A stretch of DNA of 25,727 nt, taken from IMG/VR virus record IMGVR_UViG_3300025286_000125, positions 1-25,727 of that record. One strand, written 5' to 3'. Positions 9,638 to 25,727 of this stretch are shown here, piece after piece; the stretch's first letter is position 1; every line of letters starts with the position of its first letter. The DNA comes from a virus. Its lineage: Duplodnaviria; Caudoviricetes. The translations under genes were made by a program, and so were the position numbers. Under the pieces are notes generated by a model, which searched no databases, was not told where the DNA came from, and was given only the letters and a program-made list of their open reading frames with translations.

Positions 9638-9642
9638 AGAAG

Positions 9643-9810
9643 ATGAATAAGGGATTAGGAGATACAGTATCTAATGTCATTAAGAAAGTTTCTGGTGGCA
9701 AGATAAAAGAATGTGGTGGCTGCAGTAAGAGACGTGACTGGCTTAATGAAAAGGTATCATATAGGCGTAATGCTTTAGATGCAATTGATAAGATACAGAG
9801 TAATAAATAA
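9643..9810 (+). CDS. Small CxxC protein (55 aa), absent from the ORF track
   Basis: Hand translation MNKGLGDTVSNVIKKVSGGKIKECGGCSKRRDWLNEKVSYRRNALDAIDKIQSNK; fills the gap and overlaps the next gene by TAATG. Confidence 0.85.
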   Translation: MNKGLGDTVSNVIKKVSGGKIKECGGCSKRRDWLNEKVSYRRNALDAIDKIQSNK

Positions 9811-11372
9811 TGGCTTTTAGACAACCAAGAATATATTCATCAGCAGATGCATTCCGTGATGCTACAGATCATGCACTAAAGCTGGCTCTTGCTACTATTG
9901 GTGATAAAACAACTGAAGAAACAAATAGAGTAAACCTAGCTATTAAGAGATTAAACTCTCTGGAAAGCCAAAGAAATACGATTCAAGTTGCTTGGCTGGA
10001 GAAACAAGCTCAGATAGCTGGTTATATAGGAGAATCTGATAGCTTACAAGATATATATAAAACTGGTAAAGAAGGAAAATTAGGGAGTAGTGTAGAAGAT
10101 ATAACAGCTGATTTATATACGGAGCCTTTCAAATACCATACGCAAGCTATGCAAGTCACACAAAATCAGATTGATGTGCTTGGCCCTGCTATGGCTAGTT
10201 CAATAGATAAGTTAGCAAAGCTATCCCAGGCACAGGACTTTATTACTAAAGGCATAGGTGCTACTTTTAAAACTGGAGCAACAGAAGAAGAAATAGCAGA
10301 GTGGGGGCCTGAAGATCTTAGTCAAGCTGCATTCAGAGGAAAGTTTTATCCTGATTTGAAAGAGGGCGAAGAGATACCTAAAGAACTGGAGGTTTTCTTT
10401 CAAAGACATCAACCTGACCCAATAACTATTGCAGGTTTAGAAACTAAAAGAAAGAGGGAAGATTGGGAAATAGAACAAAGAGAGATAACAAGAGCAGGTG
10501 AACAAAGAGCTATAGATACTGCTCTTATGGCTAAAGAGCGACATGCTATTGAAACAGGCAAGCAGAGACATCCTGGTGATGTAGAAACAAATAAGAGTTT
10601 AGCAAGAATGAATATTTATAATCCTATGATTGAAGAATCTATGACTGGAATGCTGTCTGCTTCTTTTGGATATGCAAATATGCTTTCTGGTCAGAAAGAA
10701 CAAAAGCCAGACCTTATAGAAAAAGGTCAAACAGTTTTTGATGCTGAAGCATTTAGGATAGGATTGATTTTTAATCCAGCTCCTGCTGGTGATTTAGGTA
10801 TAGATCCACAAACGATACGAAACATGAGTTCAATTGAGTTTCAAGATAGATATGAAGAACTTTTAGGTAAAAAAGCTAATGATCCTAAAAGAATACGGGC
10901 TATACAAATAAAACAATTGGGAGAAGAAATATATCATGAAAATAAGCCTACTAGAATGTCAGATCCTCTTCAGGTTAAAAGAGGACTAGAGGTACCTGCT
11001 TATAATGATAGGGATGAATTAATAGCTCAAGCATATAAAAGATTTAGTGATGTTAAGAAGGTTAGTTCAACTGCAGCTGGTAAATATGCTGATGACATTA
11101 AATATATTCTTGGTGTAGATCTTCGACATGAAGGCACTGTTCGAGGTATATTAAAAGAATACTTTAGGACAAATTATCTTGAAAGTGCTATTGGTTATGA
11201 AGGTGGATATGATACTATTTTAGAAAAAAATCTTACCGTGTATCAAAAAGACCTTGCAGGTGATTTTATGGATCTAGTTAAACGTAATTATAATTATGAT
11301 ATAGTTGAAGATAGGTGGATTGATGGATGGCAAAGACTTGCTGATGGAACAATGGTACCACAATATGAATAA
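9810..11372 (+). CDS. Putative internal virion (ejection) protein, 520 aa
   Basis: Long helical-looking Cys-free ORF within the virion protein cluster. Confidence 0.65.
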   Translation: MAFRQPRIYSSADAFRDATDHALKLALATIGDKTTEETNRVNLAIKRLNSLESQRNTIQVAWLEKQAQIAGYIGESDSLQDIYKTGKEGKLGSSVEDITADLYTEPFKYHTQAMQVTQNQIDVLGPAMASSIDKLAKLSQAQDFITKGIGATFKTGATEEEIAEWGPEDLSQAAFRGKFYPDLKEGEEIPKELEVFFQRHQPDPITIAGLETKRKREDWEIEQREITRAGEQRAIDTALMAKERHAIETGKQRHPGDVETNKSLARMNIYNPMIEESMTGMLSASFGYANMLSGQKEQKPDLIEKGQTVFDAEAFRIGLIFNPAPAGDLGIDPQTIRNMSSIEFQDRYEELLGKKANDPKRIRAIQIKQLGEEIYHENKPTRMSDPLQVKRGLEVPAYNDRDELIAQAYKRFSDVKKVSSTAAGKYADDIKYILGVDLRHEGTVRGILKEYFRTNYLESAIGYEGGYDTILEKNLTVYQKDLAGDFMDLVKRNYNYDIVEDRWIDGWQRLADGTMVPQYE

Positions 11373-11898
11373 GGAAGAACTTAAAAAGATACAGGCAAGT
11401 TGGAAGTTAAGGCAGGTTGAAAGAGATTCTATTCTAGCTTCACAAAAAATTAATCTTCCAGGTGATTCTGTGGAAGTTAAGCCTCCATATGAAGGTTTAC
11501 CCGCTTTTTCTGATATGCCAAAAATACCTGGTATAGGAGAAGGTAGTATTCTTGATCTTTTTGGAAAAGGTATTATGTACTCAGGTCAGGCTGAACAAGC
11601 ACGATCTCAAGCAGCTATAGAAGCTGGTAAGGTTGCAGTAGAAGCAGTCGAACCTGTGGTAGAACCTTTAGTTTCAGGAGTACGGTCTCTTACAGCTGAT
11701 ATGCTGACTGGGGATTATCAAAGATCAGTTATAGCTGGCGCAGTTGGTGCTCCAGTAGATATGGCTAACTCACTTCTTTCTTTGTTAGGCATTGAAATGA
11801 CTTATAGTGATAAGCCTTTTATGGGATCAAAACACATTAAAGAATCTTTAGATTATCTGTCTGGCTCTCCTTATTCTACCAGATTTATGGTAAAATAA
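11365..11898 (+). CDS. Putative internal virion protein (~177 aa)
   Basis: ATG 11365 overlapping the previous stop is more plausible than TTG 11305. GAPVDMANSLLSLLG...KPFMGSKHIK resembles a motif of phage internal virion proteins. Confidence 0.65.
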   Translation: MNKEELKKIQASWKLRQVERDSILASQKINLPGDSVEVKPPYEGLPAFSDMPKIPGIGEGSILDLFGKGIMYSGQAEQARSQAAIEAGKVAVEAVEPVVEPLVSGVRSLTADMLTGDYQRSVIAGAVGAPVDMANSLLSLLGIEMTYSDKPFMGSKHIKESLDYLSGSPYSTRFMVK

Positions 11899-11901
11899 AT
11901 T

Positions 11902-14900
11902 ATGAGCAATGGACTTTATACGTCTCCCGTAGAAGAAGATGAGAATAAAAGGTATCTAGAACAGTTAAGACAACTAGAGCTTGGTAAGGGTATGGATCCC
12001 ATCTATGATGAGGATGATAGTAGTTGGCTTACAGATTTTACAGGTAATCTTTTATGGGGGGGAACATCTGCTGCTACTTGGGGTGCTTTTGATGTAGCAG
12101 CACTCACTGAACTTGGAAAAGGTGGAAGATCAGCCCTTTCTCTAGGTACCTACAGGCCATGGGAGGAACAAACAGGAGCAGGTAAGGCTGGGTTTATACT
12201 TGGACAGGGTGTGGGAATGTTTGCCACATTTAGCTGGACTGGTAAAGCATTAGGATTATTAAGTAGTGCTTTTACAAAGAAATTTCCTACAGGTAGGGTT
12301 GCTACACATATAGCAAAAAAAGCAGGTACTGAAGCTGTAGAAAAGTTTGGTGAGAAAAAAGGCATTGAGTCTTTAGCAAAATATGGGGACAAATTATTAA
12401 AAGGTGAAGTAGGTGACTTAGCAATGGAGGGTCTGGAAAGAGGAACCCTTGAAGCTATGAGAGAGGCTACTAAAATAGTCAGGTCTCCTGGATATAAAAG
12501 ACTTTGGAAGTTTAATCAAGAAGCTTATACACATGCAGTAGATGATATGAGTCGTAAGCTGCTTAGTGAAATGCCTGATATGGGGGCTGAGTCTGCATTA
12601 AAACTATCAGATAACTTAATATCCTCTGCCATGAAATATTCTACACATCAATTCCATAATTATATGGATGCTGTTGTAGGGTTGGGTGCTCAAGCAGCCG
12701 CTAAGAGACCAGGATCTATAGCAAGAGGGTCTCAGTGGACATTAACTGGTAAGACAGGTAGAACACTATCTGCAATGTCGACTGATGCAGTGTTGGGATT
12801 TACGCATCATCTGGCTCAAGCTGCTATTGAAAATGTGACTCATAAAACTGGAGAAATACTGGGGGGTGAATTTGATGCTAAAGAGTTAAAGCATTTAGAA
12901 AATTTGAATTCAGGTCTTATGGATGTACTTATTCATTCTGGTCAATCTGGATTGTGGATGTCTTTAATTGCTCCTACCAGATTTATTAAAGGTGGTAGAA
13001 CTACCAAGCTTCATAAGGAAGCAATGGCTGGATTAAATACTTTAAGAAAAGCATGGAAACCTGCAGATAGAATGGCAGGTCATCAAGCAAGAACTACATT
13101 ACAGTTTATAGATGATGTATCTGAGGGTTCTTTGAAGAAAACCATCTTGTCCAAGGAATTAGCTGGAAGGGAAATTGAAAATCTTACCAGAGATGAAGCT
13201 GTTTCTATGCTAAAGAATGTAAGGAAGGGTTTTTCTCGTGAGTGGCTGAGTTATATGGGTAAGGAAATAAAGGAAGATCTCACAGGATCTGCAGGTAGAA
13301 TGATAGCAGGTGCATTGGCTATGAACCTTCCAGCTATAAAACAATATTATGATGAAACTGGTAAGTTTGATCCTGTAGGAGCTCTTGGTGCTGATCCGTC
13401 AGAAATAGTGTCTAATATGATTGTTGGGATGTTGTTTGCAAAGAGTGGCAGAACTTTTGGGGAAGGTGGTACCAGTAGAAAGCAGTCAAGACTTTTTGAA
13501 ACAGGAGAAATGAAGCAGTATTACACTGCTAATGTTAAGAAGATACAATCTATCAGAGCTGGTCTTGAAGTGATGGGATATAAATCATCTGGTGAAGGTT
13601 TAAATATTAATAATGCTGCTACAGAACTCTTTGGTCGTTACTTAGTTAATACTGGTGATTATAAGATAGTAGATGATATTCTTAGAGATAAATTTGTTAT
13701 AGCTGAGGACTCTCCCGTAATAGAAGGAGCAAAGCCCCTGAATGAAGCTTATGAATCAGTTGTTAATGTAGTAGCTGATCCTGTAGCAAAAGGAAAATTA
13801 GATATTGCGATGAAAGTTATTGCTCATTATGACAATAACTCTACTGATATCGGAAATGTAATGAAGCATGTTACTCCTGATGAAGCTGTAGATATTGTAA
13901 AAAGAATAAATGAGATACCTGGGATAAGAGAGAACCAGGCTTTTCCTGAAATTTGGCTGAGAAAGGTTGAACTTCAGGCTGGATGGACTGCAAATGAAAA
14001 GTTTTATGACTTACAGCTTGGCAGTGCGATAGGATTTTATGAGTCTATTGGAGTAACAAATTATTCATATGATCCCAGTACTAGTATTCTGAGAGTTCCA
14101 GAAGTTAATCTTCAAAGATTGTTAGGCTCAAGGCCATCTGAGACACTGAATGATTTCAAAGTCACTCATGAAAAGTTTCTTGAAGAAGGACAGAAGAATG
14201 GTAAGGTTATTATTGAGGGTAGACTAGCAAGGGAGAAACCAGCTCTAGGAGACCAACAATTAAAGGCTTTGGAAACTTCATATGAGGGTTATGTTGCATT
14301 GATGAATGAAAGTTCATACGGCAGAGATTCTATGATGTTTGATAAAGGTATCATGCACGATAATAATATGTGGATAGCTTACAATGTCACAAATGCTGAT
14401 ATAGATATAAATAATACTCTTCGCATGTTTACTGACGTTAAAAGAGACAGGATATTTACAAACTTAGCTAAAGAAGATGTTGAGTTTCTACAAAGACAGA
14501 TAGATAGTATGCAGTTAAACAGAAGTAGAGTGCCTGAGCTATCAGATAAAGATGTTATACAAACTAAAGCAGACCAACAAAGGTTTGATGATCTTACAAA
14601 GTTTTATGCCAGAGTACAGAATGTTTATAATGTATTAACTGGCAACAAAAATTTAAATGTATCTACTGACAAAGCTATTACTATGGATGCAATTGCAGGT
14701 GCAAAGGATAATATGACCAATAAGTTGGGTGATGTTTTTATGAATGATGCTGTGTATGAAAGATTATTAAACCAATCTGTAAATCATATGGTTAATACTC
14801 TTGATATACAGAGTCTTGGTAGAAATCAGCAGCTGAAGCATAGTTTACTAGTTATGATGAATGGTGGAGTGGGAACTAGTGGTACTAGTGTTGGTGATTT

Positions 14901-17900
14901 AAACAAGTATGGTGGCCTGGTTGTAAGAAGAGAAAACCAGATACAAATACCAGATACAAATACATTATTTAGAATTTTAAAATCATCTCCAGAATTACAG
15001 AAAGAGAATTTAGATAGTCTAAGAGAATATTATTCTGATTTTCAAGAAGGTATCTCAGCTGCATCAGGCCCTATAAATATTACTAAAGATGCTACCGCAA
15101 TTACTGAGTTAATTACAAGTGTTGGCGGAGCTTCTAATGCAAGAGGTATACTGAATATAGCTAGGATCTTTTCACAAGTGGGCCATATTAAGGATTTGCA
15201 TAATGGATATGAAAGTCTGACAGACTATATGAATAAGATAAAAAATGATTCTGACTTATATGTTGAAAACTATACAGCAATGTCTGATTTTGATGCATCC
15301 ATTAGTGGAAGTCTTAGAGAACTTGTTCATCAGATGGGAACATTAAGATCAAACATAAAACATCTTATTGATACTCGTGACTATCAAGCACTTATAGATA
15401 TTAAGCTTGAGGAGAATTCTTCTCTTATGCAAAGTCTTGAAAGATTTAAAAATAGGGATTTGATAGATGTTATTGATAAAGATACAGGAGATATAGTTAG
15501 TACAAAGTATAAACAAGAGTTGGTTGATGTAATAGCAAGAACAAAAGAGCTTTTAGGTAACAATGTTCTTAACGAAGAGAATATTTCTTCTTATGTAAAT
15601 GAGCAAATTGCAAAAAGTGAGTATGATATATATACAAGGGAACATACTTTAAGAATGAATACTACTCCTCAAAGATTTGAATCGGATTATGGAGTTCCTA
15701 CAGCGCAACAAGAAATTATTATAGACAATGCTTTAGGTGGTAAGAATGTTCGTTCAGCTCAAGTTACCAATGAAAAAATTCTAAATTCAGTTAGAGAGCT
15801 ATATCGTGAGGCAGTACAAAGACAGCTTGAGATATTTCAAGATACAGGAAGAGTAACTGAAAGATTAACTGATGAACAGTTATATAATGATGCTTGGCAG
15901 CTTACATCTGCTAAAGCTTTTTCTGGTAAAGTTAAGAGAGTTAAATATATTGGAGGTTATGATGGTGGTATTCTTGTATCTAGTGAAGTTGGATATCCAG
16001 TACAAAGTCAACGTGATGGAAGAGGAGTCACAGGATTAAAGAATATTTTATTTGAGGGTGGAGAAGGTTGGTATGTTCTTCAGCCTGATATGAAGTTTCT
16101 TATGGAGGGGCAAGCTGTCGCAAAAGATCTTGTTATACTTGATAAAAATGTGATGTCTGCTATAGATAGTCAAATAGAAAACGGAATAGGTATAGATTCT
16201 AAAACTGTAAGAAATGAATACCATAAACAGACGTTGGAAAAAAGTTTAGTGGAAGAAATCACTGCAACCAAGGTTCCAATGATAAGAGTTATTTTGAATG
16301 ATAGGACGCAGTTAGCTGTAAGTAAGGATCTTGCTCAAAGATCTATAAGTAGAGCATATAGTGAGGGAGGAGCATTATCCATGCTTGTCAGAACAATATA
16401 TGGTGATGGCAATCAACGTGCAGCAGATACTTTTTTAGAGAGATTTAGAACACCTAACATGAGTGTTGATGTGTTAAAAGAAGGTATAAATGAGGCTTGG
16501 AATATTTTAAATCAACCTTCTTTACTTATACCTGGTGAAAGAAGCAGGCTGGATAGAGAAATAGAACTTGACTATATGAAAAGAAGAAAGCTTGCAGATA
16601 TATCTAAGGGTAAGATTTTAAATAGCAGGTATCGTGAAGCATTAACTGAGTTTTATGAGTTTGTTAGTCAAGAAACTAACAGTCCTTTAGCTAGAGCATT
16701 AGCAGATTCTTATGCTGAGATGAGAGGTGAGGACGGAAGAAATATACCGATGAGAAGTTTATCTATAAATGATAGTGGAGACCAGCTATCTGTCATAAGC
16801 AGGTTCAGAAGAAGACTAGAAATGTATGACGAAGATATGATGGCAGGTATAGATAGAAATCAAGTAGAAACTTTTATAGAAGGTATGAGTAAAGAAGCAA
16901 CTGATTCTCCTACATTTTTAACTAAAGGATCTTTCTTAAGGTTTCTCGGTACATTTGCTCCAAGCAGAGATCTTATTCAGTTTAATGAATTGAATGAGGT
17001 TATTGGATTTAATGTAGGTGCAATGAAACCTAAAGGTGTTGATGTTTTTGTGGGGGAAGATGGCAGTGTGAGAGTTTCCTACGACAAGTCAGCATTTTTT
17101 TACAGTCCTAAAATAGGTGAAACTCTTGAAGCAGCAGGTTTGGATGAGGTTAAATTTAGATCAGGCAATAAAATAAATGTATCAAGGACAGGTACTGGAG
17201 AATTAACTGAAAATTATGTTGATCCTGTTACACGTAGAGCTGAAGTTGAAGCTCGTAGTATAGAAGAGATAGTTGAATGGACAATAGAAGCATCTCAGGA
17301 TAGAGTACAAGAAATACCTTGGGCAAGTTATGATCTTACTCAAGCATCTGTTCCGCATTCAGGAACTGTTGGTGCTAATACAGGGGTGCATTATTCTAAC
17401 AGGAGTGGTTTAAATGATTGGACTCAGATTGCTAGGCGTACAAATGAGTTTAATGAATTGTTGTCAAGGGTACAGGATTCACCTGAAGCTCTTACTAATA
17501 TAGGAAGAAGTTTATCAGAGTCGTCAAGAGCTGAAGGAGATCTAAATCCAACCAGGACAGCTCTGGATTCTTTTCTTGACAGTCAGGGACTAGTTGTAAG
17601 TGATTGGATGGGAGATTTAATAGTTGATAATCTATTCAACAGGTATTTTCAAGGTTCTAAAATTGCTTCAAGAGAAGTTAGAGGTTCTTCTTATAGTCCT
17701 ATGGCTCCATTTCTTGCAGATCAAAATGTGGACTTACCATTAATTTATACTGATACGGATAATATAGGTAGGCAAAGGATATATGGCGGCTTTGGGATCA
17801 ACAGTGAAATAGCAGAGATGCCTTTTAAGGCTCTAGGAAGGTCTACCTTGACAGAAACTACTCCTAATGGTGACCATAACAAGCTTGTGACTGGATTCTT

Positions 17901-20721
17901 CATAGGAAGACACAATTTTCACAATCCTGCAGTTGGAAGAGTTAGTAAATCAGAATTTGTTATTATACCAAATGAGAAAAAAGGTTTTACTGCTATGGTA
18001 GAGGGAATGGAGCTACAAAAAGATGGAACTTTTGTAGATATAGTTAAAGGTAGATTGGATGCTTTGAGTCCTGAACAGCAGAGAATCAATAGAAGAATAT
18101 ATCGTACTATAGAATCTGACGTTAAAGAGCTAAGAACATTTTGGGAGAATGAGGGTGCTTCTAATGAGAAGATGCTTAATAAATTAGCCCTAACTGATAA
18201 TATGTGGATGGGAATATTAAATACAAGGCAGCCCAGAAATGCTTATGATGTTGTCATAAATAAAGTTCACAGAGAGAATCTAGGTTCAGAGGAAGTTCCT
18301 AACTGGAAGCATTATGATGCAAGGGAAGGTAACAGTACAAAACAAAATGTTGTTGATGTTTTAAGGCAGGATGCTGACCATGATTTTGACAAATCAAATG
18401 TATATACAACAGCTCCGCATGATTTTATTAAAGAAGTTGCTACTATGGCTGGATCTAAAGTAGTAAATGATCCGTTAGAATATTCAAACTTGATTATTAA
18501 AAAACTTCAGGTTGATATGGGAGACCAGGCTGGTATGAGAGCATGGTTTGAAGATGTTAATAATACTTCTGCATTGCGTGGTAGATTTATGAAACTTCAC
18601 CAGATATCTACTTATCTCAGTAATGCTCTTGGTGAAGGAGGAACTTTAGGAACGCTAACTATAAATAATAAGCAAGTCCGCATTAAAATGAAGAGTAGAA
18701 AAGACTATGTTAATGTGGTGGGTGATATATCCAGAACAGTGAAGTATTTTTTAGATAACTATAAAGATATTGTAGATGTACGAACAGAAGCTGGGTTTGC
18801 TCCTGGAGTAGATAAGTTTGTTAGAGATATTTTATTTGGTGCAGAAAATGTAGTAAATGGACAAGTCATGAGTAGATTTGAGGGATTGTTTAAGTTTGTA
18901 GGAGAAGGTAATAACCCAGACATTAATCAAGCTCGTTTAAATGCTGGTGTTGGTGGAGAATTATTATCAGAAACATTATACAATCAGATTGTCAGTCCTC
19001 TTAATAGGTATTTATCTTATAATAGAGGAGAGCTTACTCAGGCAGATATTAAAAGTAAGATAACATTAAAAGATGTTCATCGTGGATGGTCTGATATTAG
19101 AGATACATTCTTTATAAAAAAGGGAAGGAAAGATAGAGTTCTTGACTTAGATGCTATAAAACTAGATTTAACAGAAGGTAAGAATCTACTTTATGATTTT
19201 TTAACAGTTGAAAGTAATAATCCATTTGATATAGCAATGGCTTCTTTGTCAAGTGCTTATGATACTGGATTAAAAGTAAAGAGACATGCTGGACATCTGC
19301 AGACTAATATAGAAAATTTGATATTTGAAGGAGAAAGTAAAACTTTGTTGAAAGGAGTGGATGGTCTTAGGAGCACTAGCAGGCAAATTTTTAGAATGGT
19401 TAAAGATGAGGGGTCACTAGCTAAACTTGTTATAATTTCTGATAGATTGGAAAGCTTGGGAGGTGAGCTTGCAAGATTACAAGCAAATCAATACTCTAAT
19501 CAGTATGATGTAGATAAAATTGCCAAGAGAGTTGACTACTATGCTGGCCTTAAGACAGAACTTGAACTTTTGGTTGGCTCAAAGATAGCAGTAGAAAGAC
19601 TTGAGAATGTGTTCAGGTATTCAAAAGGTAGAAAAGAAGGTATGCAAACTGCTTTTGGTGAAGATTGGGTAGTGTGGGATAGTCAAGGTAAAAATATAAA
19701 ACAAGTAATTAGAGAAGGTGAGACAAATAAGCGAGACATATCTCCAAGCGATCTTGTAGTAAGAGGTGGAAAAAGTTTTGAGTTTCATCCACCTAAAAGA
19801 CAGGACAGGTTAAGAGAAAAGTGGATTGCTTATGGAAAGCCGCAACTTGAAATGGCTACAGAAGATGGCAGGATGGTAGCTATGGATAAACTTCAATATG
19901 ATGGGTCTGTTATTCCTGCTTATATAGATTTCTCCTCTGAGTATAGAAAAATTGGAAGAGAATGGGCAGTTCACAGGGATGGAGAATTACTAGCTATTCA
20001 GCGAAAAGCTTTATTAAATATGTTTATGAATGATATTGGTAATAGTTATGGATTGTCTGATCCTTTAAAGAGAAGAGCATTTTTATTTAAGCTGATGACA
20101 CCAGAAATGGATAATAGTACATATGTAGTTAAGGAAAGTAATGGAAAATATGCGTATGACTATAAGTTTACTGAAAATGAAAAAATATCTAAGACTGTCT
20201 ACAGTTATCTTACTGATGTAGTAGAGGGACAATCTTTTTCTAGGGATAATTCTATGACCAGGATAGAAGCAAATAATATGATACAGGAATTATCTAGAAA
20301 GGGTGCTCTTGCATTTTATGGATTAACGGATCCTTATTCTACTGTTAATATTCCTTTTACAAGAACTTCATCTTACCTTGATAAGGTCAGCAAAAGATTG
20401 GTTGATATTGATAAGAATATATTGAGGCCTACTAATGTAGTTAAGGGACAAGAACATGAATTTAATAGTGCTATCTCTATGATAAATCAGTTTATAAATG
20501 GAGATAGACTTATTACTCCATTTGATATGGCAAGAATATCAAGAAAGATAGTTGGCACTAGGGGTGGTGTTGATATGTTTAGAGTTGGGGAAAGTGGGAA
20601 TTCTAATCCTGTGTTAGTTAGGAAAGCAGGTGTAAGAGGGTCTGAGCCTAAGCAAACAATTGATCAGTTGTTTAATGATCTGGCTAAAAGAAGGAGAAAC
20701 TGTGAGGGAGGAAGACCTTAA
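11902..20721 (+). CDS. Giant virion protein (2939 aa) containing a putative two-barrel (double-psi beta-barrel) DNA-dependent RNA polymerase
   Basis: Ordered motifs: DSPTF (D1668), MKPKG (K1709), YDKSAF (K1729), FRSGNK (K1757), LNTRQP (R2109), ADHDFDK (D2159/D2161/D2163), then FLDNYK. Lies among ejection genes and has only one Cys. Confidence 0.8.
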   Translation: MSNGLYTSPVEEDENKRYLEQLRQLELGKGMDPIYDEDDSSWLTDFTGNLLWGGTSAATWGAFDVAALTELGKGGRSALSLGTYRPWEEQTGAGKAGFILGQGVGMFATFSWTGKALGLLSSAFTKKFPTGRVATHIAKKAGTEAVEKFGEKKGIESLAKYGDKLLKGEVGDLAMEGLERGTLEAMREATKIVRSPGYKRLWKFNQEAYTHAVDDMSRKLLSEMPDMGAESALKLSDNLISSAMKYSTHQFHNYMDAVVGLGAQAAAKRPGSIARGSQWTLTGKTGRTLSAMSTDAVLGFTHHLAQAAIENVTHKTGEILGGEFDAKELKHLENLNSGLMDVLIHSGQSGLWMSLIAPTRFIKGGRTTKLHKEAMAGLNTLRKAWKPADRMAGHQARTTLQFIDDVSEGSLKKTILSKELAGREIENLTRDEAVSMLKNVRKGFSREWLSYMGKEIKEDLTGSAGRMIAGALAMNLPAIKQYYDETGKFDPVGALGADPSEIVSNMIVGMLFAKSGRTFGEGGTSRKQSRLFETGEMKQYYTANVKKIQSIRAGLEVMGYKSSGEGLNINNAATELFGRYLVNTGDYKIVDDILRDKFVIAEDSPVIEGAKPLNEAYESVVNVVADPVAKGKLDIAMKVIAHYDNNSTDIGNVMKHVTPDEAVDIVKRINEIPGIRENQAFPEIWLRKVELQAGWTANEKFYDLQLGSAIGFYESIGVTNYSYDPSTSILRVPEVNLQRLLGSRPSETLNDFKVTHEKFLEEGQKNGKVIIEGRLAREKPALGDQQLKALETSYEGYVALMNESSYGRDSMMFDKGIMHDNNMWIAYNVTNADIDINNTLRMFTDVKRDRIFTNLAKEDVEFLQRQIDSMQLNRSRVPELSDKDVIQTKADQQRFDDLTKFYARVQNVYNVLTGNKNLNVSTDKAITMDAIAGAKDNMTNKLGDVFMNDAVYERLLNQSVNHMVNTLDIQSLGRNQQLKHSLLVMMNGGVGTSGTSVGDLNKYGGLVVRRENQIQIPDTNTLFRILKSSPELQKENLDSLREYYSDFQEGISAASGPINITKDATAITELITSVGGASNARGILNIARIFSQVGHIKDLHNGYESLTDYMNKIKNDSDLYVENYTAMSDFDASISGSLRELVHQMGTLRSNIKHLIDTRDYQALIDIKLEENSSLMQSLERFKNRDLIDVIDKDTGDIVSTKYKQELVDVIARTKELLGNNVLNEENISSYVNEQIAKSEYDIYTREHTLRMNTTPQRFESDYGVPTAQQEIIIDNALGGKNVRSAQVTNEKILNSVRELYREAVQRQLEIFQDTGRVTERLTDEQLYNDAWQLTSAKAFSGKVKRVKYIGGYDGGILVSSEVGYPVQSQRDGRGVTGLKNILFEGGEGWYVLQPDMKFLMEGQAVAKDLVILDKNVMSAIDSQIENGIGIDSKTVRNEYHKQTLEKSLVEEITATKVPMIRVILNDRTQLAVSKDLAQRSISRAYSEGGALSMLVRTIYGDGNQRAADTFLERFRTPNMSVDVLKEGINEAWNILNQPSLLIPGERSRLDREIELDYMKRRKLADISKGKILNSRYREALTEFYEFVSQETNSPLARALADSYAEMRGEDGRNIPMRSLSINDSGDQLSVISRFRRRLEMYDEDMMAGIDRNQVETFIEGMSKEATDSPTFLTKGSFLRFLGTFAPSRDLIQFNELNEVIGFNVGAMKPKGVDVFVGEDGSVRVSYDKSAFFYSPKIGETLEAAGLDEVKFRSGNKINVSRTGTGELTENYVDPVTRRAEVEARSIEEIVEWTIEASQDRVQEIPWASYDLTQASVPHSGTVGANTGVHYSNRSGLNDWTQIARRTNEFNELLSRVQDSPEALTNIGRSLSESSRAEGDLNPTRTALDSFLDSQGLVVSDWMGDLIVDNLFNRYFQGSKIASREVRGSSYSPMAPFLADQNVDLPLIYTDTDNIGRQRIYGGFGINSEIAEMPFKALGRSTLTETTPNGDHNKLVTGFFIGRHNFHNPAVGRVSKSEFVIIPNEKKGFTAMVEGMELQKDGTFVDIVKGRLDALSPEQQRINRRIYRTIESDVKELRTFWENEGASNEKMLNKLALTDNMWMGILNTRQPRNAYDVVINKVHRENLGSEEVPNWKHYDAREGNSTKQNVVDVLRQDADHDFDKSNVYTTAPHDFIKEVATMAGSKVVNDPLEYSNLIIKKLQVDMGDQAGMRAWFEDVNNTSALRGRFMKLHQISTYLSNALGEGGTLGTLTINNKQVRIKMKSRKDYVNVVGDISRTVKYFLDNYKDIVDVRTEAGFAPGVDKFVRDILFGAENVVNGQVMSRFEGLFKFVGEGNNPDINQARLNAGVGGELLSETLYNQIVSPLNRYLSYNRGELTQADIKSKITLKDVHRGWSDIRDTFFIKKGRKDRVLDLDAIKLDLTEGKNLLYDFLTVESNNPFDIAMASLSSAYDTGLKVKRHAGHLQTNIENLIFEGESKTLLKGVDGLRSTSRQIFRMVKDEGSLAKLVIISDRLESLGGELARLQANQYSNQYDVDKIAKRVDYYAGLKTELELLVGSKIAVERLENVFRYSKGRKEGMQTAFGEDWVVWDSQGKNIKQVIREGETNKRDISPSDLVVRGGKSFEFHPPKRQDRLREKWIAYGKPQLEMATEDGRMVAMDKLQYDGSVIPAYIDFSSEYRKIGREWAVHRDGELLAIQRKALLNMFMNDIGNSYGLSDPLKRRAFLFKLMTPEMDNSTYVVKESNGKYAYDYKFTENEKISKTVYSYLTDVVEGQSFSRDNSMTRIEANNMIQELSRKGALAFYGLTDPYSTVNIPFTRTSSYLDKVSKRLVDIDKNILRPTNVVKGQEHEFNSAISMINQFINGDRLITPFDMARISRKIVGTRGGVDMFRVGESGNSNPVLVRKAGVRGSEPKQTIDQLFNDLAKRRRNCEGGRP

Positions 20722-20825
20722 TATGAAAAATAACGAAAAAGTTATCTCATATATATCAATTTTTCAAACTTGTTTTAAAAAGTCGCCCTACCCTACACAT
20801 CAAAATTTGAAACTTTGGAGTTGTA

Positions 20826-23660
20826 ATGGCAATATTAGGTAATTGGGTATTCTGTAATAATCCTAAGAAACTTCATCCTGATCTTAGCGATAAAGAGCTA
20901 GAAGCGGTGGATAACAAATTACGAGAAGTTGTCATAAAGTCATGGAAAGAAAATCAAACAATGAAGAAGTTTGGCTGGCATAATGATGCAGAAGAGTTTA
21001 AAAGTAGATGGCAGCAGGCAACTGGAAAAAATATTGAATTACATCAAGCTACGATGAGTGACGTTAAGGTCTTTGAATCATATATGAAAGGATGGACAAA
21101 ATCTATAGAAAATGGGTACGAAACATCATGGCATGCATGGAAACTCTTGCCACAAAAATTAAAGATGCTTCCAGGTGGAGAGACCACTTACAGAGATTTA
21201 ATAGATATAGTTTCATATGAAAGAAGACATAAGATAAATGCTCAATTACAACTTAAGGATATAGAAGTTGCTTTAAAGAAATTAGCAGGTAAAAAATATT
21301 TTGATGTAGATACAGAAAAAGTGGCAAAACTGGAATCATTAATAATGTCTACTACTGATGTTAGGGATGTAGAAACAATTTATAATGAGTTAATGAAAGA
21401 ATTAGGCTCTAAGGGTGGCGTAAGGGCAAGAAAAGCTGCTGGAGACCTGTTTTATGGCTTACAAGATGTATTAGAGGGAGCTGACCCACAGAGTTTAAGG
21501 AAATCTTCTCCTAGTGGTAAATCTGTTCCATGGAGTTATTCTGAAAAGAAATTGGCAACCGAAATTCAAAATGCTTGGATTTCGACAAGAAAAGATTTAG
21601 CAATAGTGGCAATAAATGCTTTAAGGATAGAGAAGGATTTTGCTAAAAGGTTAGATGTAAGAGAAAATCATGCAAGAGGACTTGAAAAACATCTTGATAC
21701 TATAGAAAGTAAAATAAAGGAACTTGAATTAACAGTACAATCTAAAGATCCAAATAGAGATAAAAGATATGATTTAAATGATAATCAGGTTAAAAAATTA
21801 GGCGAATCTGGTAGTCTTCGTAAAGAATATATGCCTCATCAGATTTTGACTATGATCAAACATCTTGACGCTTTTCATAATTGGATGGAAGCTGATGTAC
21901 CTGATATGAATATAACTGCATCTGAAAAGTTTAAAAATTTAGTATTAAGTAGTGATAGATCTTTTATTGAGAGGTTGAAATCCAGAGGAGAAACAGGGGA
22001 AGAGTATTATTCAAGAAATCCTTTGTTCTTCATATCTCAATATATACAGGATATAACAAGGTATAACTATAAACGATCAGTAGAAACTGTATTAGCAGAT
22101 TCTTTTGATAAGTTAATAAAAAGTAAAAAGTTTGCTGAAGGTAAGGGTACGGTTGAAAGAGAACAGGTAATAAAATTTGTTGATGAAGCTTTAGGCACAC
22201 TAAATAATATTGCAGAAGAAGCTTTAATTACTGATAGTCGAGGAAATAGCAGATCTAAAAGATTGTCAAATTTTGCTACTACATTGGGCTTCATAAGAAC
22301 TATGGGTTACAATGTAAGAAGTCCATTAAGAAACTATACTCAGAAGTATTTTGAGCATATGGATATGGGATATAGAGCACCGAGAGAAGCTAGATCATAT
22401 GTACAAGGTAATAAAGAAATTGAAACTGCTATGACTGATGCTATTGAAAGGCATGGTCTCTTTTGGAAAACTGATGATAGCTTTATAAAGTCACTTACAA
22501 CTACTTATCATACTGCTGCTGCAACTAGAGGTACAAAAGAAAGTAGTATTCTGCCTCCTGGTATGGCTGAAATTAATGGTAAGGTAATGATTGTTAATGA
22601 AACATTGTTTGATAAGACATTAAGAGCAATAGACAAAATAGCAGATGTTGGTTCTTTTATGCATAGAAAAGTAGAAGATGTAATAAGAGCTCATTCTTTT
22701 ACTACTGCTTATGGACTTGCTCATAAAAATTTATCTGAATTGCCAGTTTGGTTTATAAATCAAGAAATGGGAAAAAAGTCTACTACTGAAGCAACACGAA
22801 AAGATTGGATAAATAAAGCTGCTGGTTCATCGGCTTATGGTAAAGTTATTGATATACATTATGAATATTCCATGATACAAAAGCCGAAACTTATTAAAGG
22901 GCCAGTAGGATCAGTAATAGGACAATTTAAACAGTACAGGTTTTCTAATATAGATATGCAATGGAACTGGATAAAAGCAGGAATGAGAAGAGTTAAATCT
23001 GGTGGACTTGCTGAGTATGATGCAGTAAGACTGTATAGATTAGGTGTGACTTATTCTCTTATATCTGGACTTACTGCAGCTGTAGGTATTGGTTTTTCAA
23101 ATTTATTTCAAAATGATACTTATGAATGGATTAAGAGTTATTTTACTTACTGGACTGCTGATAGAACTACTGAAGAGGGCAGAAAAAAGGCAGAAAGAGC
23201 TCTATATGAAAAAGGAGAGCTTGGAGAGCTTGGGCCTACTTTTGGTGCTCTTATTGAAGTATTAGATATATTTAAACTTATGAGGATTGATCATTCCCAT
23301 AGACTTGCTATTCTTGGAATAACAAATGATATCTCCCCAGTAGAAAGTATTGATGATATGGATAGAAATTACAGATTAGCTAGACTCGTTAATTTGCAGG
23401 CAGCTAGATCTTGGTATCATACAAGAGAATCTTTACTGAATAAAAATTATACTAAAGCTTTTCTTACTGAAACTGGACTATTTGCTAATGCAGATGAACA
23501 GGAATCTTCAGATACATTTATGGGGTGGATAAGAAGGCTTACCAGAACAAAAACTTATGAGCCACCATCTGTAAAAAGAGAAAGAGAACGTACTTTAAGA
23601 GAACTTTCTCCTGCTTATGCAGCAGCTGTAAAAAGTATAGATACTTATTTAGTTAGCTAA
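20826..23660 (+). CDS. Large internal virion (ejection) protein, 944 aa
   Basis: SD GGAG. YMPH, MGYNVRSPLRNYTQ, IGQFKQY and hydrophobic LGVTYSLISGLTAAVGIGF resemble the C-terminal helical module of large phage ejection proteins. Confidence 0.7.
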   Translation: MAILGNWVFCNNPKKLHPDLSDKELEAVDNKLREVVIKSWKENQTMKKFGWHNDAEEFKSRWQQATGKNIELHQATMSDVKVFESYMKGWTKSIENGYETSWHAWKLLPQKLKMLPGGETTYRDLIDIVSYERRHKINAQLQLKDIEVALKKLAGKKYFDVDTEKVAKLESLIMSTTDVRDVETIYNELMKELGSKGGVRARKAAGDLFYGLQDVLEGADPQSLRKSSPSGKSVPWSYSEKKLATEIQNAWISTRKDLAIVAINALRIEKDFAKRLDVRENHARGLEKHLDTIESKIKELELTVQSKDPNRDKRYDLNDNQVKKLGESGSLRKEYMPHQILTMIKHLDAFHNWMEADVPDMNITASEKFKNLVLSSDRSFIERLKSRGETGEEYYSRNPLFFISQYIQDITRYNYKRSVETVLADSFDKLIKSKKFAEGKGTVEREQVIKFVDEALGTLNNIAEEALITDSRGNSRSKRLSNFATTLGFIRTMGYNVRSPLRNYTQKYFEHMDMGYRAPREARSYVQGNKEIETAMTDAIERHGLFWKTDDSFIKSLTTTYHTAAATRGTKESSILPPGMAEINGKVMIVNETLFDKTLRAIDKIADVGSFMHRKVEDVIRAHSFTTAYGLAHKNLSELPVWFINQEMGKKSTTEATRKDWINKAAGSSAYGKVIDIHYEYSMIQKPKLIKGPVGSVIGQFKQYRFSNIDMQWNWIKAGMRRVKSGGLAEYDAVRLYRLGVTYSLISGLTAAVGIGFSNLFQNDTYEWIKSYFTYWTADRTTEEGRKKAERALYEKGELGELGPTFGALIEVLDIFKLMRIDHSHRLAILGITNDISPVESIDDMDRNYRLARLVNLQAARSWYHTRESLLNKNYTKAFLTETGLFANADEQESSDTFMGWIRRLTRTKTYEPPSVKRERERTLRELSPAYAAAVKSIDTYLVS

Positions 23661-23690
23661 AGGGGGAAAGATCTCTCTCTCCCCCCTTCT
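23660..23690. terminator. Probable bidirectional terminator hairpin between convergent units
   Basis: aagggggaaaga-tctc-tctctcccccctt imperfect stem directly after the + strand stop and just before the - strand stop at 23698; U-tracts are short. Confidence 0.65.
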
Positions 23691-23697
23691 CATGAGG

Positions 23698-23886
23698 TTA
23701 ATTAACAAACTTGTTTATATCCTTATTTAAGACAATATTTAAGTTACTAGCATGTTGAAGTACTTCTAATGAAGTTCTGGAATTATTTATATTCTTTGTT
23801 GTATTACTTAAATATGAGTTAAATAGTTTTTTAACTTCTTTAACTTTTAATTTATTGATTGCTTTCAGTACTTTTATATTATTCAT
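23698..23886 (-). CDS. Hypothetical basic protein (62 aa)
   Basis: Fills the gap after the resolvase; AAGGT upstream; very AT-rich. Confidence 0.6.
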   Translation of the reverse strand: MNNIKVLKAINKLKVKEVKKLFNSYLSNTTKNINNSRTSLEVLQHASNLNIVLNKDINKFVN

Positions 23887-23889
23887 TTT

Positions 23890-24216
23890 TTACCTTTCTT
23901 CGGGCATTGTGGATACAAACTTATCATCCAGCCAATCGTCAAATCGCATAATAATAAGTGTTTCTCCTCTATCTTGTTTACATACAACAGCATCTACATG
24001 CTCACTTGGAAGTAGGAATGCTGCTAACTTCTTTCTGCATTTGGCTTGTATTTTTATTTCAGGTTCTCTACCAATCGTGAGATCTACTTCTTCATGAAAA
24101 CCTAATGATTGACCATTAGATCCCCATGCACGTACAGCAGTAAAACCTGCTTTCTTAGCTTCGTTTACTATCTCTCTTTCAAATCTATTGCCTTTAGCTT
24201 TACTTGGTGAAGGCAT
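23890..24216 (-). CDS. Holliday junction resolvase, Hjc-like PD-(D/E)xK nuclease
   Basis: SKAKGNRFEREIV...GF.A.R.WGS.G...VDL...IQAK; SD AAGGAG. Confidence 0.85.
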   Translation of the reverse strand: MPSPSKAKGNRFEREIVNEAKKAGFTAVRAWGSNGQSLGFHEEVDLTIGREPEIKIQAKCRKKLAAFLLPSEHVDAVVCKQDRGETLIIMRFDDWLDDKFVSTMPEER

Positions 24217-24383
24217 TATGCTTCTCCTTTCTTGGAAAATACAATTTTAACAGTGTTTAGATTATTCATCACCACTTGGACAACTGCATCATAATCTTCA
24301 GGAATCATATCATTAGCTTTGAAGAATGATAATGGTATAGTTAGTCTACCTCTTTTGTCTAGATTACATTTAGCTATGTTCAT
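24216..24383 (-). CDS. AbrB/MazE/SpoVT/MraZ-like DNA-binding protein (55 aa), absent from the ORF track
   Basis: Hand translation MNIAKCNLDKRGRLTIPLSFFKANDMIPEDYDAVVQVVMNNLNTVKIVFSKKGEA; LDxxGRLxIP motif; SD AGGAGG; TAATG coupling to the resolvase. Confidence 0.8.
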   Translation of the reverse strand: MNIAKCNLDKRGRLTIPLSFFKANDMIPEDYDAVVQVVMNNLNTVKIVFSKKGEA

Positions 24384-24555
24384 TTTTCCCTCCTATATCC
24401 GTTTTTAAAACTTCAACAACTTCTTTACTTCTAAATCCATCATCACCTATTACAATATCTACTGCTTCTCTTATATCGTCTATATAATATAATCCATGTT
24501 CAGCAAAGTATTTTTTTGTGGATGGATTTTCTTTCAACCATTTGATTTTACTCAT
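24370..24555 (-). CDS. Hypothetical protein (61 aa)
   Basis: SD AAGGA upstream; overlaps the next gene. Confidence 0.75.
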   Translation of the reverse strand: MSKIKWLKENPSTKKYFAEHGLYYIDDIREAVDIVIGDDGFRSKEVVEVLKTDIGGKNEHS

Positions 24556-24574
24556 TTTTTATCCTTATAGAAAA

Positions 24575-24671
24575 ATTAGGGGAGAAGCCAACAATTCACA
24601 TGGTAACCTTTTTCTATTGATATTCCACACACCAATTGGTTAAAAGATTGTAGTAAATATTCTCCCCTAAT
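24575..24671 (-). repeat. Perfect 12-bp inverted repeat enclosing 73 nt (structured intergenic element)
   Basis: ATTAGGGGAGAA at 24575-24586 and TTCTCCCCTAAT at 24660-24671; followed by a T-run on the - strand. Confidence 0.8.
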
Positions 24672-24672
24672 G

Positions 24673-24936
24673 TTATTTGTTCTCAAAATCCCTGAAATAC
24701 TTTATGGTTTCACCATATCCAACTGTTTTAGGGCTGACAGTATCGCCTGTTGGCTTTATACTCTTCATTACTATCCTATTCAAGATAGATTCAGCTCTAT
24801 ACAATCTATGTTCCAGGTCAGATATTTTGTCCATGTAATGCTTTTCTGGCATTTCTGAATCAAAAACTCTTCCCATTTCCTCACTCACTTTCTTATCTAT
24901 TGGTTTGACAATTGATGCTAATTCTTTAAACAACAT
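24673..24936 (-). CDS. Hypothetical protein (87 aa)
   Basis: GAGGT upstream; tightly packed - strand unit. Confidence 0.7.
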   Translation of the reverse strand: MLFKELASIVKPIDKKVSEEMGRVFDSEMPEKHYMDKISDLEHRLYRAESILNRIVMKSIKPTGDTVSPKTVGYGETIKYFRDFENK

Positions 24937-24938
24937 AT

Positions 24939-25091
24939 TTACCTCGGCATTCCTATTCGATTCTCTATCCTCTTAATTCTGATTGACAGGTTTAACATAT
25001 TTTGTTCAATCAAATCTAACTTACTAATCATCTTAAGTAAATCTTTCTTGACTTCCTTAAGTCCTGTTGTTGGTTTTATTTTAGTTGGCAT
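24939..25091 (-). CDS. Hypothetical coiled-coil microprotein (50 aa), absent from the ORF track
   Basis: Hand translation MPTKIKPTTGLKEVKKDLLKMISKLDLIEQNMLNLSIRIKRIENRIGMPR; AGGAGG upstream; fills the gap. Confidence 0.7.
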   Translation of the reverse strand: MPTKIKPTTGLKEVKKDLLKMISKLDLIEQNMLNLSIRIKRIENRIGMPR

Positions 25092-25282
25092 TTCTTCTTT
25101 TCCTCCTGTTTACGTAAGAATTTTCTTAGCCTTTCAGCTTTATCTTTATCTGTAGTTCCTCTTAATTCTTGTAATCTTTCATAAGCTGAACCACCTTTTT
25201 TTATTATTCCAGACCTTAATATATTTTCATAAAATTCAACCTTAGAACCATTTTTATCTAAACCATTACGTAATTCTTTCAT
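25076..25282 (-). CDS. Hypothetical basic protein (68 aa)
   Basis: ATGA overlap with the upstream gene. Confidence 0.7.
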   Translation of the reverse strand: MKELRNGLDKNGSKVEFYENILRSGIIKKGGSAYERLQELRGTTDKDKAERLRKFLRKQEEKKKCQLK

Positions 25283-25596
25283 GATTTAGATCTCCAGTAT
25301 CCATCTCTTGAACCTTTAATTTCTTTTCTAGAATAATGTATATCAGTTTGCTCTTGCATATCATCAGCAGCTTCCTGTAAAGTATCATAAGGAGCTTCTT
25401 CTAAGTAATCAGAATTGAATTCATCAGCTGTAGTGGGTTCAGATGGATAGTACTCTTCACAAAAATCTTTACATACTTTATCTGCTACATCTTTTTTAAA
25501 TACTTTTGTTATAAATATTGGATATGAATAGTTACCTAATGCATCTACAACAATTGTATGAAGATTTCTTTTTGGCTTTTTATCCTGTTTTTTCAT
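25279..25596 (-). CDS. Hypothetical protein (105 aa)
   Basis: Purine-rich SD-like AAGGGAAGG upstream; overlapping neighbours. Confidence 0.75.
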   Translation of the reverse strand: MKKQDKKPKRNLHTIVVDALGNYSYPIFITKVFKKDVADKVCKDFCEEYYPSEPTTADEFNSDYLEEAPYDTLQEAADDMQEQTDIHYSRKEIKGSRDGYWRSKS

Positions 25597-25726
25597 TCCT
25601 TCCCTTCCTGTTCATTACTAGTCCAATATATCCTATCAAATCTAAAGAGATTCGCTTTATGTTATTGTTTTTACAGCTTAAAGCCCATCTCTCTACCATT
25701 CTGCTTACTTCACTATCAAGAAAATC
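25580..25726 (-). CDS. Partial CDS (C-terminal 48 aa), possible histone-fold protein
   Basis: Frame open to the window edge: DFLDSEVSRMVERWALSCKNNNIKRISLDLIGYIGLVMNRKGRNEKTG. Confidence 0.5.
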   Translation of the reverse strand, partial: DFLDSEVSRMVERWALSCKNNNIKRISLDLIGYIGLVMNRKGRNEKTG

Positions 25727-25727
25727 A

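Follow-up and report, generated by a model that had tools for sequence, protein, structure and literature searches.

A predicted single-chain two-barrel RNA polymerase, likely packaged with a cysteine-bearing partner, in marine short-tailed phages

A stretch of 25,727 nucleotides from a Caudoviricetes virus (IMG/VR record IMGVR_UViG_3300025286_000125, positions 1 to 25,727; hereafter "the window", meaning this whole stretch) carries one giant open reading frame (ORF), which raises the question of whether its product is an RNA polymerase carried in the virus particle and, if so, of what kind. An original prediction made from the sequence alone had read it as a divergent two-barrel enzyme, injected with the DNA to transcribe early genes, and had singled out its DHDFD catalytic loop as non-canonical. 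With a probability of roughly 0.8, we read the ORF as encoding a packaged, injected two-barrel RNA polymerase that would transcribe the early genes of a marine short-tailed phage. The weight of the finding lies in a putative cysteine link to a partner protein, the swapping of a gene pair, and a promoter candidate, more than in the histidine of the loop.

The window sequence was taken as real because its words recur in public data: at least 50% of them were present in 19 of 24 listed public runs (8 possibly source runs), 18 of these 19 being labelled marine, seawater, or aquatic and one unlabelled; no RNA run holding the sequence was found among the public runs listed. All eight motifs behind the original prediction were recovered in frame within the one ORF (Table 1), namely DSPTF (starting at 16903), MKPKG (17023), YDKSAF (17080), FRSGNK (17155-17172), SREVRGSSY (17668), GILNTRQP (18211-18234), QDADHDFDK (18367-18393), and FLDNYK (18748-18765). 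QDADHDFDK is the only DxDxD-bearing stretch in the polymerase, and R2109-Q-P2111 lies 50 residues upstream of it (R and P at 57 of 57 aligned loci), in agreement with the filter of Supplementary Data 4 of PMC10770324, which looks for [RK]xP 20-100 residues before DxDxD (here and below, statements on cited papers refer to their accessible passages). Among 2,000 shuffled versions of the polymerase, 57% contained DxDxD and 18% the arrangement [RK]xP-x(20-100)-DxDxD. By itself the motif is within chance, and it rises above chance because of its conservation in homologues and the predicted fold.

Fold and conservation of the polymerase core

An AlphaFold2 model of residues 1560-2460 (901 aa), built from 57 sequences, reached a predicted local distance difference test (pLDDT) score of 82.6 and a predicted template modelling (pTM) score of 0.83. 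Double-psi beta-barrels (DPBBs) were predicted, and the core matched the two enzymes named for comparison in the original prediction: in a Foldseek search against PDB, gp66 of phage phi14:2 ranked first (E 1.1e-6, TMq 0.40) and QDE-1 next. A Foldseek-free comparison with 48,161 chains gave Z ≥ 8 for six of them, all single-chain two-barrel polymerases: QDE-1 (Z 13.9, 465 residues aligned, root-mean-square deviation (rmsd) 6.1), gp66 (Z 11.2, 609 residues, rmsd 6.9), gp96 (10.7 and 10.6), gp62 (10.2), and RDR2 (9.8). Multisubunit enzymes stayed at Z ≤ 7.9 and mostly matched the second half of the model. Isolated DPBB domains (7dbo, 7dww, 7dvc) fit model residues 368-612 with an rmsd of 2.2-2.4 Å over 84-85 residues (Z 5.3-5.5). 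The barrel DPBB-A contains R2109-Q-P-R-N (18226) and the Asp triad D2159/D2161/D2163, and a second barrel, DPBB-B, lies N-terminal to it in the same chain; its limits, taken from the strands of the model, are approximate. Model residues 1-901 align over QDE-1 672-1186 and gp66 876-1813, spans that include both barrels. Among predicted viral structures (BFVD), unnamed entries came top, two of them at 23-28% identity, followed by crAss-like proteins, and an ESM Atlas match to an RNA-dependent RNA polymerase (RdRP) at 0.84 is treated as a lead only. The putative bridge helix owes its name to its position, and that of the putative trigger helix is likewise inferred. Taken together, the fold matches uphold the proposal of a two-barrel RNA polymerase of the gp66 and QDE-1 kind, and the modelled fold is almost certainly that of a single-chain two-barrel enzyme.

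A homologue search with residues 1620-2330 as query, in which 7,996 proteins were scored, yielded 27 homologous proteins at 23-100% identity, none of them with a name; P0001 is the window's own cluster, with 4 residues differing. The triad D2159, D2161, and D2163, whose conservation the original prediction had put forward as a check, is kept in 27 of 27 proteins and at 57 of 57 loci, and the candidate beta-like barrel lysines K1709, K1729, and K1757 are each found in 27 of 27, as are R2109-Q-P-R-N, R2226, K2231, H2233, and D2285. Scanning of contigs contributed a further 36 viral and 77 metagenome loci. In an alignment of 57 sequences (the window plus 56 loci below 92% identity, from 98 with a full core), conservation maxima coincide with the motifs. 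A profile search of long proteins gave 16 matches, one of them new, and the family size is a lower bound. Common to proteins P0010-P0013 is an insertion of ~100 aa near residue 2130, which falls within the catalytic barrel, after RQPRN and before the triad.

Across the 57 loci, a selected set partly retrieved by loop pattern, the second loop residue is F in 38, H in 9, Y in 9, and N in 1, and the fourth is F in 36, M in 16, Y in 4, and L in 1, never Ile or Val. The unselected 27 proteins carry DHDFD (14), DYDYD (7), DFDFD (3), and three singletons, again with neither Ile nor Val at position 4. His2160 is unconserved (15 of 27 proteins, 9 of 57 loci), and His also occurs in a Gly-type sister clade (DHDGD). 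DHDFD thereby loses its proposed standing as a special catalytic variant, position 2 being freely variable; that His is a clade-wide feature was also ruled out by its 9 of 57, and it marks a sub-clade. In these alignments the family trait is the bulky fourth residue (F, M, Y, or L), which parallels the Ile/Val of gp66 and is a variation on a known theme.

No named family matched the polymerase in Pfam or PHROGs, in GenBank phages (tblastn), or in PDB sequence searches with the protein and with a 57-sequence profile; the latter gave no gp66 row, a result that still allows for remote kinship, and their Wza rows were rejected as chance likeness over 18 residues. As no sequence search tied the homologues to a named family, the suggestion of a possible new clade is borne out, while that of an undescribed system is not: the family is a fresh variant of an already known enzyme kind. 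We did not find it described in the literature, although an earlier notice in print is possible (unnamed UniProt entries, 23-28% identity), and RQPRN, DHDFD, DFDFD, and DFDMD are absent from the accessible passages and readable supplements of PMC10770324.

How, then, does the family relate to known enzymes? Like it, phi14:2 gp66 (Crassvirales; PDB 6VR4; bioRxiv 2020.03.07.982082) combines two barrels in one chain of giant size with a DxDxD loop whose fourth residue is not Gly, and its gene is placed among virion genes. According to the same preprint, gp66 makes early mRNA and favours single-stranded DNA without a known motif, and its promoter and activation step are not known. It differs from the family in sequence (8-10% identity), in length (2,180 aa versus ~3,000 aa here), in the fourth loop residue (Ile or Val in Crassvirales enzymes, seen at 0 of 57 loci and in 0 of 27 proteins here), and in its phage, the family's phages having an SU10-type capsid and a smaller genome; gp66 transcripts lack a common upstream motif, whereas a candidate promoter is visible here. 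Further marks of the Crassvirales enzymes are a cleft-blocking domain and a zincin-like neighbour, gp65. A plain reading of the polymerase as a Crassvirales gp66 orthologue, far diverged and carried by a crAss-like phage, would fit with gp66 being the top Foldseek PDB match with the longest structural alignment, and with the many weaker BFVD matches that are crAss-like proteins. We nevertheless consider it unlikely, given the lack of Ile/Val in the loop, capsid proteins that match SU10_MCP in 5 of 5 relative records, and genomes of ~55-60 kb as opposed to ~103 kb for crAss001 (PMC10172136). The window itself lacks capsid, portal, and terminase genes; judging from the relatives' matches to SU10_MCP and P22_portal, these phages apparently lie outside Crassvirales.

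In QDE-1 and plant RDR2 (eukaryotic RNAi polymerases, PF05183), barrels and helices are ordered alike, QDE-1 having the highest Z (13.9-14.2) and two conserved barrel lysines, K743 and K767, 24 residues apart (PMC9508822) compared with 48 between K1709 and K1757; these enzymes differ in being eukaryotic and also RNA-templated, with ~10% identity and no Pfam match here. Thermus phage P23-45 gp96 (virion) and gp64 (non-virion) are single-chain two-barrel enzymes too (Z 10.2-10.7), and gp96 is injected, but it is fused to a tape-measure protein, has a DFDGD loop, lacks a clamp, and belongs to a siphovirus (PMC10770324). The N4/DEV virion RNA polymerase (Schitoviridae) is likewise giant, cysteine-depleted, and injected, and starts at DNA hairpin promoters, but has a T7-like fold, zero cysteines, and no kinship to two-barrel enzymes. 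An N4-type right-hand single-subunit core was not found in the family, whose core models and matches as a two-barrel enzyme. The polymerase is thus predicted to belong to the single-chain two-barrel clade and to work like gp66.

Gene neighbourhood and packaging

In a gene-order survey of 50 sequences (the window and 49 of 113 loci), a conserved gene of 800-1,300 aa (33 of 50) is followed by smaller genes, the polymerase, a partner gene that we call F1 (900-1,050 aa), and a convergent operon, which in relatives contains a resolvase, a primase-helicase, a single-stranded DNA-binding protein (SSB), and annealing proteins. F1 comes directly after the polymerase in 49 of 50, the remaining locus ending early. 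Upstream of the polymerase, the window holds tail spike and endolysin genes, and its F2 ORF had no match in Pfam or PHROGs. The relatives are marine podophage-type genomes of ~55-60 kb. Those of 59-62 kb have a P22-like portal and terminases, and one (G001) carries an SLT domain two genes before the polymerase. Searches for sigma-70 promoters and terminators in 9500-25727 remained at chance level.

Table 1. Features of the window around the predicted polymerase gene
Feature	Position	Strand	Remarks
F2-family ORF, 992 aa	4149-7127	+	Likely tail nozzle/muzzle, inferred from size and position; 33/50 loci
Two cysteine-free ORFs, 520 and 197 aa	9810-11898	+	Directly upstream of polymerase; likely further ejection proteins
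Polymerase ORF	11902-20721	+	2,939 aa; predicted single-chain two-barrel virion RNA polymerase; single cysteine
Predicted beta-like barrel DPBB-B	16999-17346	+	~Residues 1700-1815; K1709 (17026), K1729 (17086), K1757 (17170) invariant
Predicted beta-prime-like barrel DPBB-A	17680-18414	+	Residues 1927-2171, long insertion; starts at SREVRGSSY
Catalytic-type loop D2159-H-D2161-F-D2163	18376-18390	+	Triad 27/27 and 57/57; positions 2 and 4 variable
Inferred bridge helix, residues 2210-2243	18529-18630	+	Model helix 651-684; conserved RGRFxKxH; K2231 and H2233 57/57
Inferred trigger helix, ends in FLDNYK	18697-18765	+	Model helix 707-726; D2285 57/57
C2934, sole polymerase cysteine	20701-20703	+	Six residues from C-terminus
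Ungapped non-coding element, 94 bp	20725-20818	.	Between polymerase stop and F1 ribosome-binding site; optional, 21/67 junctions
Partner ORF F1, 944 aa	20826-23660	+	All-helical model; sole cysteine C10 (20853-20855); likely ejection protein
Hairpin at convergence point, then end of early/replication operon	23662-25727	-	RusA-like resolvase 23890-24216; likely transcription target

Of 148,577 residues counted in the polymerases, only 49 are cysteines, and eleven upstream families have none at all, compared with 0.76% in other genes; cysteine loss is a trait of N4/DEV ejection proteins (PMC11445570). Gene order and cysteine depletion suggest that the polymerase is likely packaged in the particle. 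Alternatively, a two-barrel RNA polymerase could be made after infection and transcribe late genes without being packaged, like YonO or P23-45 gp64: the fold also matches the non-virion gp64/gp62 (Z 10.2-10.6), and the conserved element found upstream of the small terminase gene and of F1 (see below) could be a late promoter. This appears quite unlikely, however, as the gene takes the penultimate place in the structural operon, amid cysteine-free ones, the polymerase is five times the size of gp64, and no second RNA polymerase came up in the relatives G001, G002, and G006, where the scan took in ORFs above 110-130 aa, some of them truncated at stretch borders.

The same scan, in showing no DNA polymerase, could favour a polymerase-fold ejection protein that chiefly pulls DNA in or makes primers instead of early mRNA; a link to F1 could keep the polymerase at the entry channel, and transcription-driven pulling has been proposed for N4 (PMC13434306). 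Yet these phages encode their own primase-helicase, and gp66, whose structure is the nearest one from a phage, produces early mRNA (bioRxiv 2020.03.07.982082), which renders this option very unlikely; pulling and mRNA synthesis are in any case compatible with each other.

Several other features of these genomes were recorded. The window's 372-aa ORF at 8519-9637, which sits among ejection-type genes, has a repeat core rich in Gln, Glu, and Gly, six cysteines close to its two ends, and a tail of GT repeats. In early operons, a ThiF (E1-like) gene (L158:941-2468, L153:10349-11873, L114:13612-14340) is adjoined in two genomes by a JAB-domain gene, forming a ubiquitin-like conjugation module. A class II tRNA-synthetase-like gene lies in G001 (L116:3113-3931), and a Fib_succ_major domain is inserted in the nozzle-like protein of G002 (L120:15001-18492). 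Two GTDB records hold the polymerase gene, one of them titled as a Dehalococcoidia metagenome-assembled genome; its family member L131 lies in a 47-kb contig, either a host hint or a mis-binned phage.

The cysteine pair, its junction, and gene-pair exchange

The polymerase has a single cysteine, 2-7 residues from its end, at all 67 non-identical loci (53 with a full-length gene), and F1 a single cysteine at position 3-15 in 65 of 67; at the other two loci, the reading frame that directly follows the polymerase begins with a cysteine-bearing peptide but is broken. The identities of the two proteins co-vary (r 0.94, 1,128 pairs). A model of F1 reached a pLDDT of 74.5, and its fold had no Foldseek match at E ≤ 0.001 and a best Z of 6.9 in the Foldseek-free search; weak fold rows (T7, E1004, and PhiM1 core proteins) are not evidence, and an LPD39 match is a lead only. 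The pre-ejectosome of cyanopodophage A4 offers a solved structure in which the C-terminal cysteine of one ejection protein (Cys1715 of gp27) is disulfide-bonded to the N-terminal cysteine of another (Cys5 of gp26), the geometry proposed here (PMC12002296). The accessible passages of that paper mention no RNA polymerase, and homology between gp26 and F1 has no support from the fold searches. By analogy with A4, a disulfide between C2934 and C10 probably links the polymerase to F1.

Phage particles assemble in the reducing cytoplasm, and a disulfide would be possible only after lysis or in the periplasm; moreover, the two cysteines are located in chain ends with little order (pLDDT < 50 for F1 residues 1-17). 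These points lend some credit to the idea that the paired terminal cysteines serve to bind a metal or some other group, or act as a signal for processing, an explanation that we regard as less likely though as a real contender. It has to be set against the presence of exactly one cysteine per chain, at facing ends and amid unconserved neighbours, across clades of 15% identity, and against the disulfide that the same geometry forms in A4 (PMC12002296).

A profile search retrieved the 94-bp element that separates the two genes in the window from 39 of 133 sequences (17 of them seeds); of 67 pairs, 21 have it at the polymerase-F1 junction, three of these being Gly-type, and 46 lack it. The element is 72-97% identical between phages with proteins only 15-25% identical, and is far deeper than its flanks in one seawater run; neither an Rfam match nor a stable RNA fold was obtained for it. 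In the viral collection the exact pattern occurs 19 times, each time behind an ORF whose product carries a single cysteine at its end. The ORFs that come next, where readable, all encode one cysteine close to the start (18 of 18), also at loci that protein searches had missed. A role of the element as polymerase/F1 crossover point was ruled out by 0 discordant pairs among 1,128. More divergent giants with the same junction and with DNDGD or DFDVD loops (L152:12233-19999, L155:5806-14703, L135, L141, L143) were found only through this DNA element. A second common stretch of 75-110 nt follows it, before the F1 start, in L024, L077, L126, L141, and L151, and small ORFs replace this second stretch in L005, L055, L057, and L123.

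A related element of 91 bp, which shares both ends with the 94-bp one (AAAATAACG ... TTTnAAAC), stands at the head of the early operon in 4 of 5 relatives, the fifth having been read only in part, with none in shuffles; copies were recorded at L164:1501-1590 on the minus strand and in L228, L200, and L254. The element has 96 matches (71 distinct) and holds a small hairpin on the template strand of the early genes, with perfect stems of at least 5 bp in 62 of 71, loops that are mostly GATA or GTTA, and several compensatory pair types, and a ribosome-binding site lies 30-59 nt beyond the element in the early direction in 57 of 71. Fixed-register pairing was found in 53 of 71, versus 37.9 ± 2.4 with shuffled partners (0/2,000), in statistics where the outer three pairs are fixed by the search pattern and relatedness is not removed. 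The N4 enzyme starts at DNA hairpins (PMC13434306). We regard the early-operon element as a candidate promoter; it may also be a packaging or late signal, a real rival to the promoter, and the window's hairpin-less copy may be an internal promoter for F1.

The Gly-type clade (9 proteins, 9 loci) is 15% identical to the family over 2,449 columns, and its polymerase occupies the same slot, before an F1 homologue. In four cross-type pairs on independent contigs, primase-helicases are 84-91% identical and F1 proteins 24-27%; in L123 and L080, the nozzle-like gene is also 78% identical. On a tree of 29 primase-helicases, restricted to loci reaching that gene, loop type changes 5 times, with at least 4 changes forced by supported branches, a number close to the mean of 6.3 in shuffles; the tree alone is silent on which module moved. 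Because their identities co-vary, the polymerase and F1 appear to move together, and these comparisons indicate that related phages swap the polymerase-F1 gene pair as a unit. The swapped sets, on near-identical backbones, are L122, L123, L124, L125, and L126 (Gly-type) versus L018, L080, L032, and L025 (bulky-type). G002 (L117-L121), an 83-kb record rated complete whose repeats are 78-89% identical, combines portions of two related phages whose giants differ, DWDGD being the loop of one, and is probably a chimeric assembly; an artefact of this two-phage record was ruled out as the origin of swapping, since independent contigs show it.

Proposed mechanism and its meaning

In the mechanism that we propose, the polymerase would likely be expressed late, along with the structural genes, and enter the particle together with the cysteine-free ejection proteins, and its triad D2159/D2161/D2163 would very likely bind Mg2+ in an active enzyme. 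Held by a C2934-C10 bond, the polymerase and F1 would, in the scenario we favour, leave the capsid as a head-to-tail chain and be reduced in the host cytoplasm. The polymerase might then start at the hairpin-bearing element heading the early operon and copy the minus-strand replication genes, a step that is possible but less than probable. More tentatively, a bulky residue at loop position 4 may hold the site in an off state until the protein refolds, a role already suggested for the Ile of gp66.

Several observations weigh against a packaged, injected two-barrel polymerase transcribing early genes. The structural overlap is loose (rmsd 5-7 Å) and identity is ~10%, which is why the modelled core is a distant branch, and the model covers just 901 of 2,939 residues. 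K1709 and K1757 are paired with K743 and K767 of QDE-1 presumptively, by motif likeness and not by residue-level superposition. Some upstream families do have cysteines, such as the window's 372-aa ORF with 6, and the SSB family is nearly cysteine-free as well, such that depletion is not exclusive to ejected proteins. Finally, 58 of the 71 hairpin elements also sit upstream of the small terminase gene, at a distance of ~500 nt, and the copy in the window carries no hairpin.

It is doubtful, although conceivable, that all proposed elements come together in one widespread marine podophage lineage outside Crassvirales, with disulfide-linked and redox-released injection, a single N4-like hairpin promoter, and cassette exchange between clades of 15% identity with the promoter kept. 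If true, a gp66-type enzyme would for the first time have a defined promoter, and very different polymerases would be reading one signal. Few injected two-barrel polymerases have been studied so far, and the family gives natural test pairs, i.e., close phages with a Gly or a bulky loop. It also provides one well-defined pair of cysteines and one conserved candidate start site in which compensatory base changes occur. Because Pfam, PHROGs, and the GenBank phage set fail to recognise the family, its genes stay unannotated in marine viromes. With a modelled core that is no farther from QDE-1 than from gp66, the family would also widen the phage pool of possible ancestors of eukaryotic RNAi polymerases.

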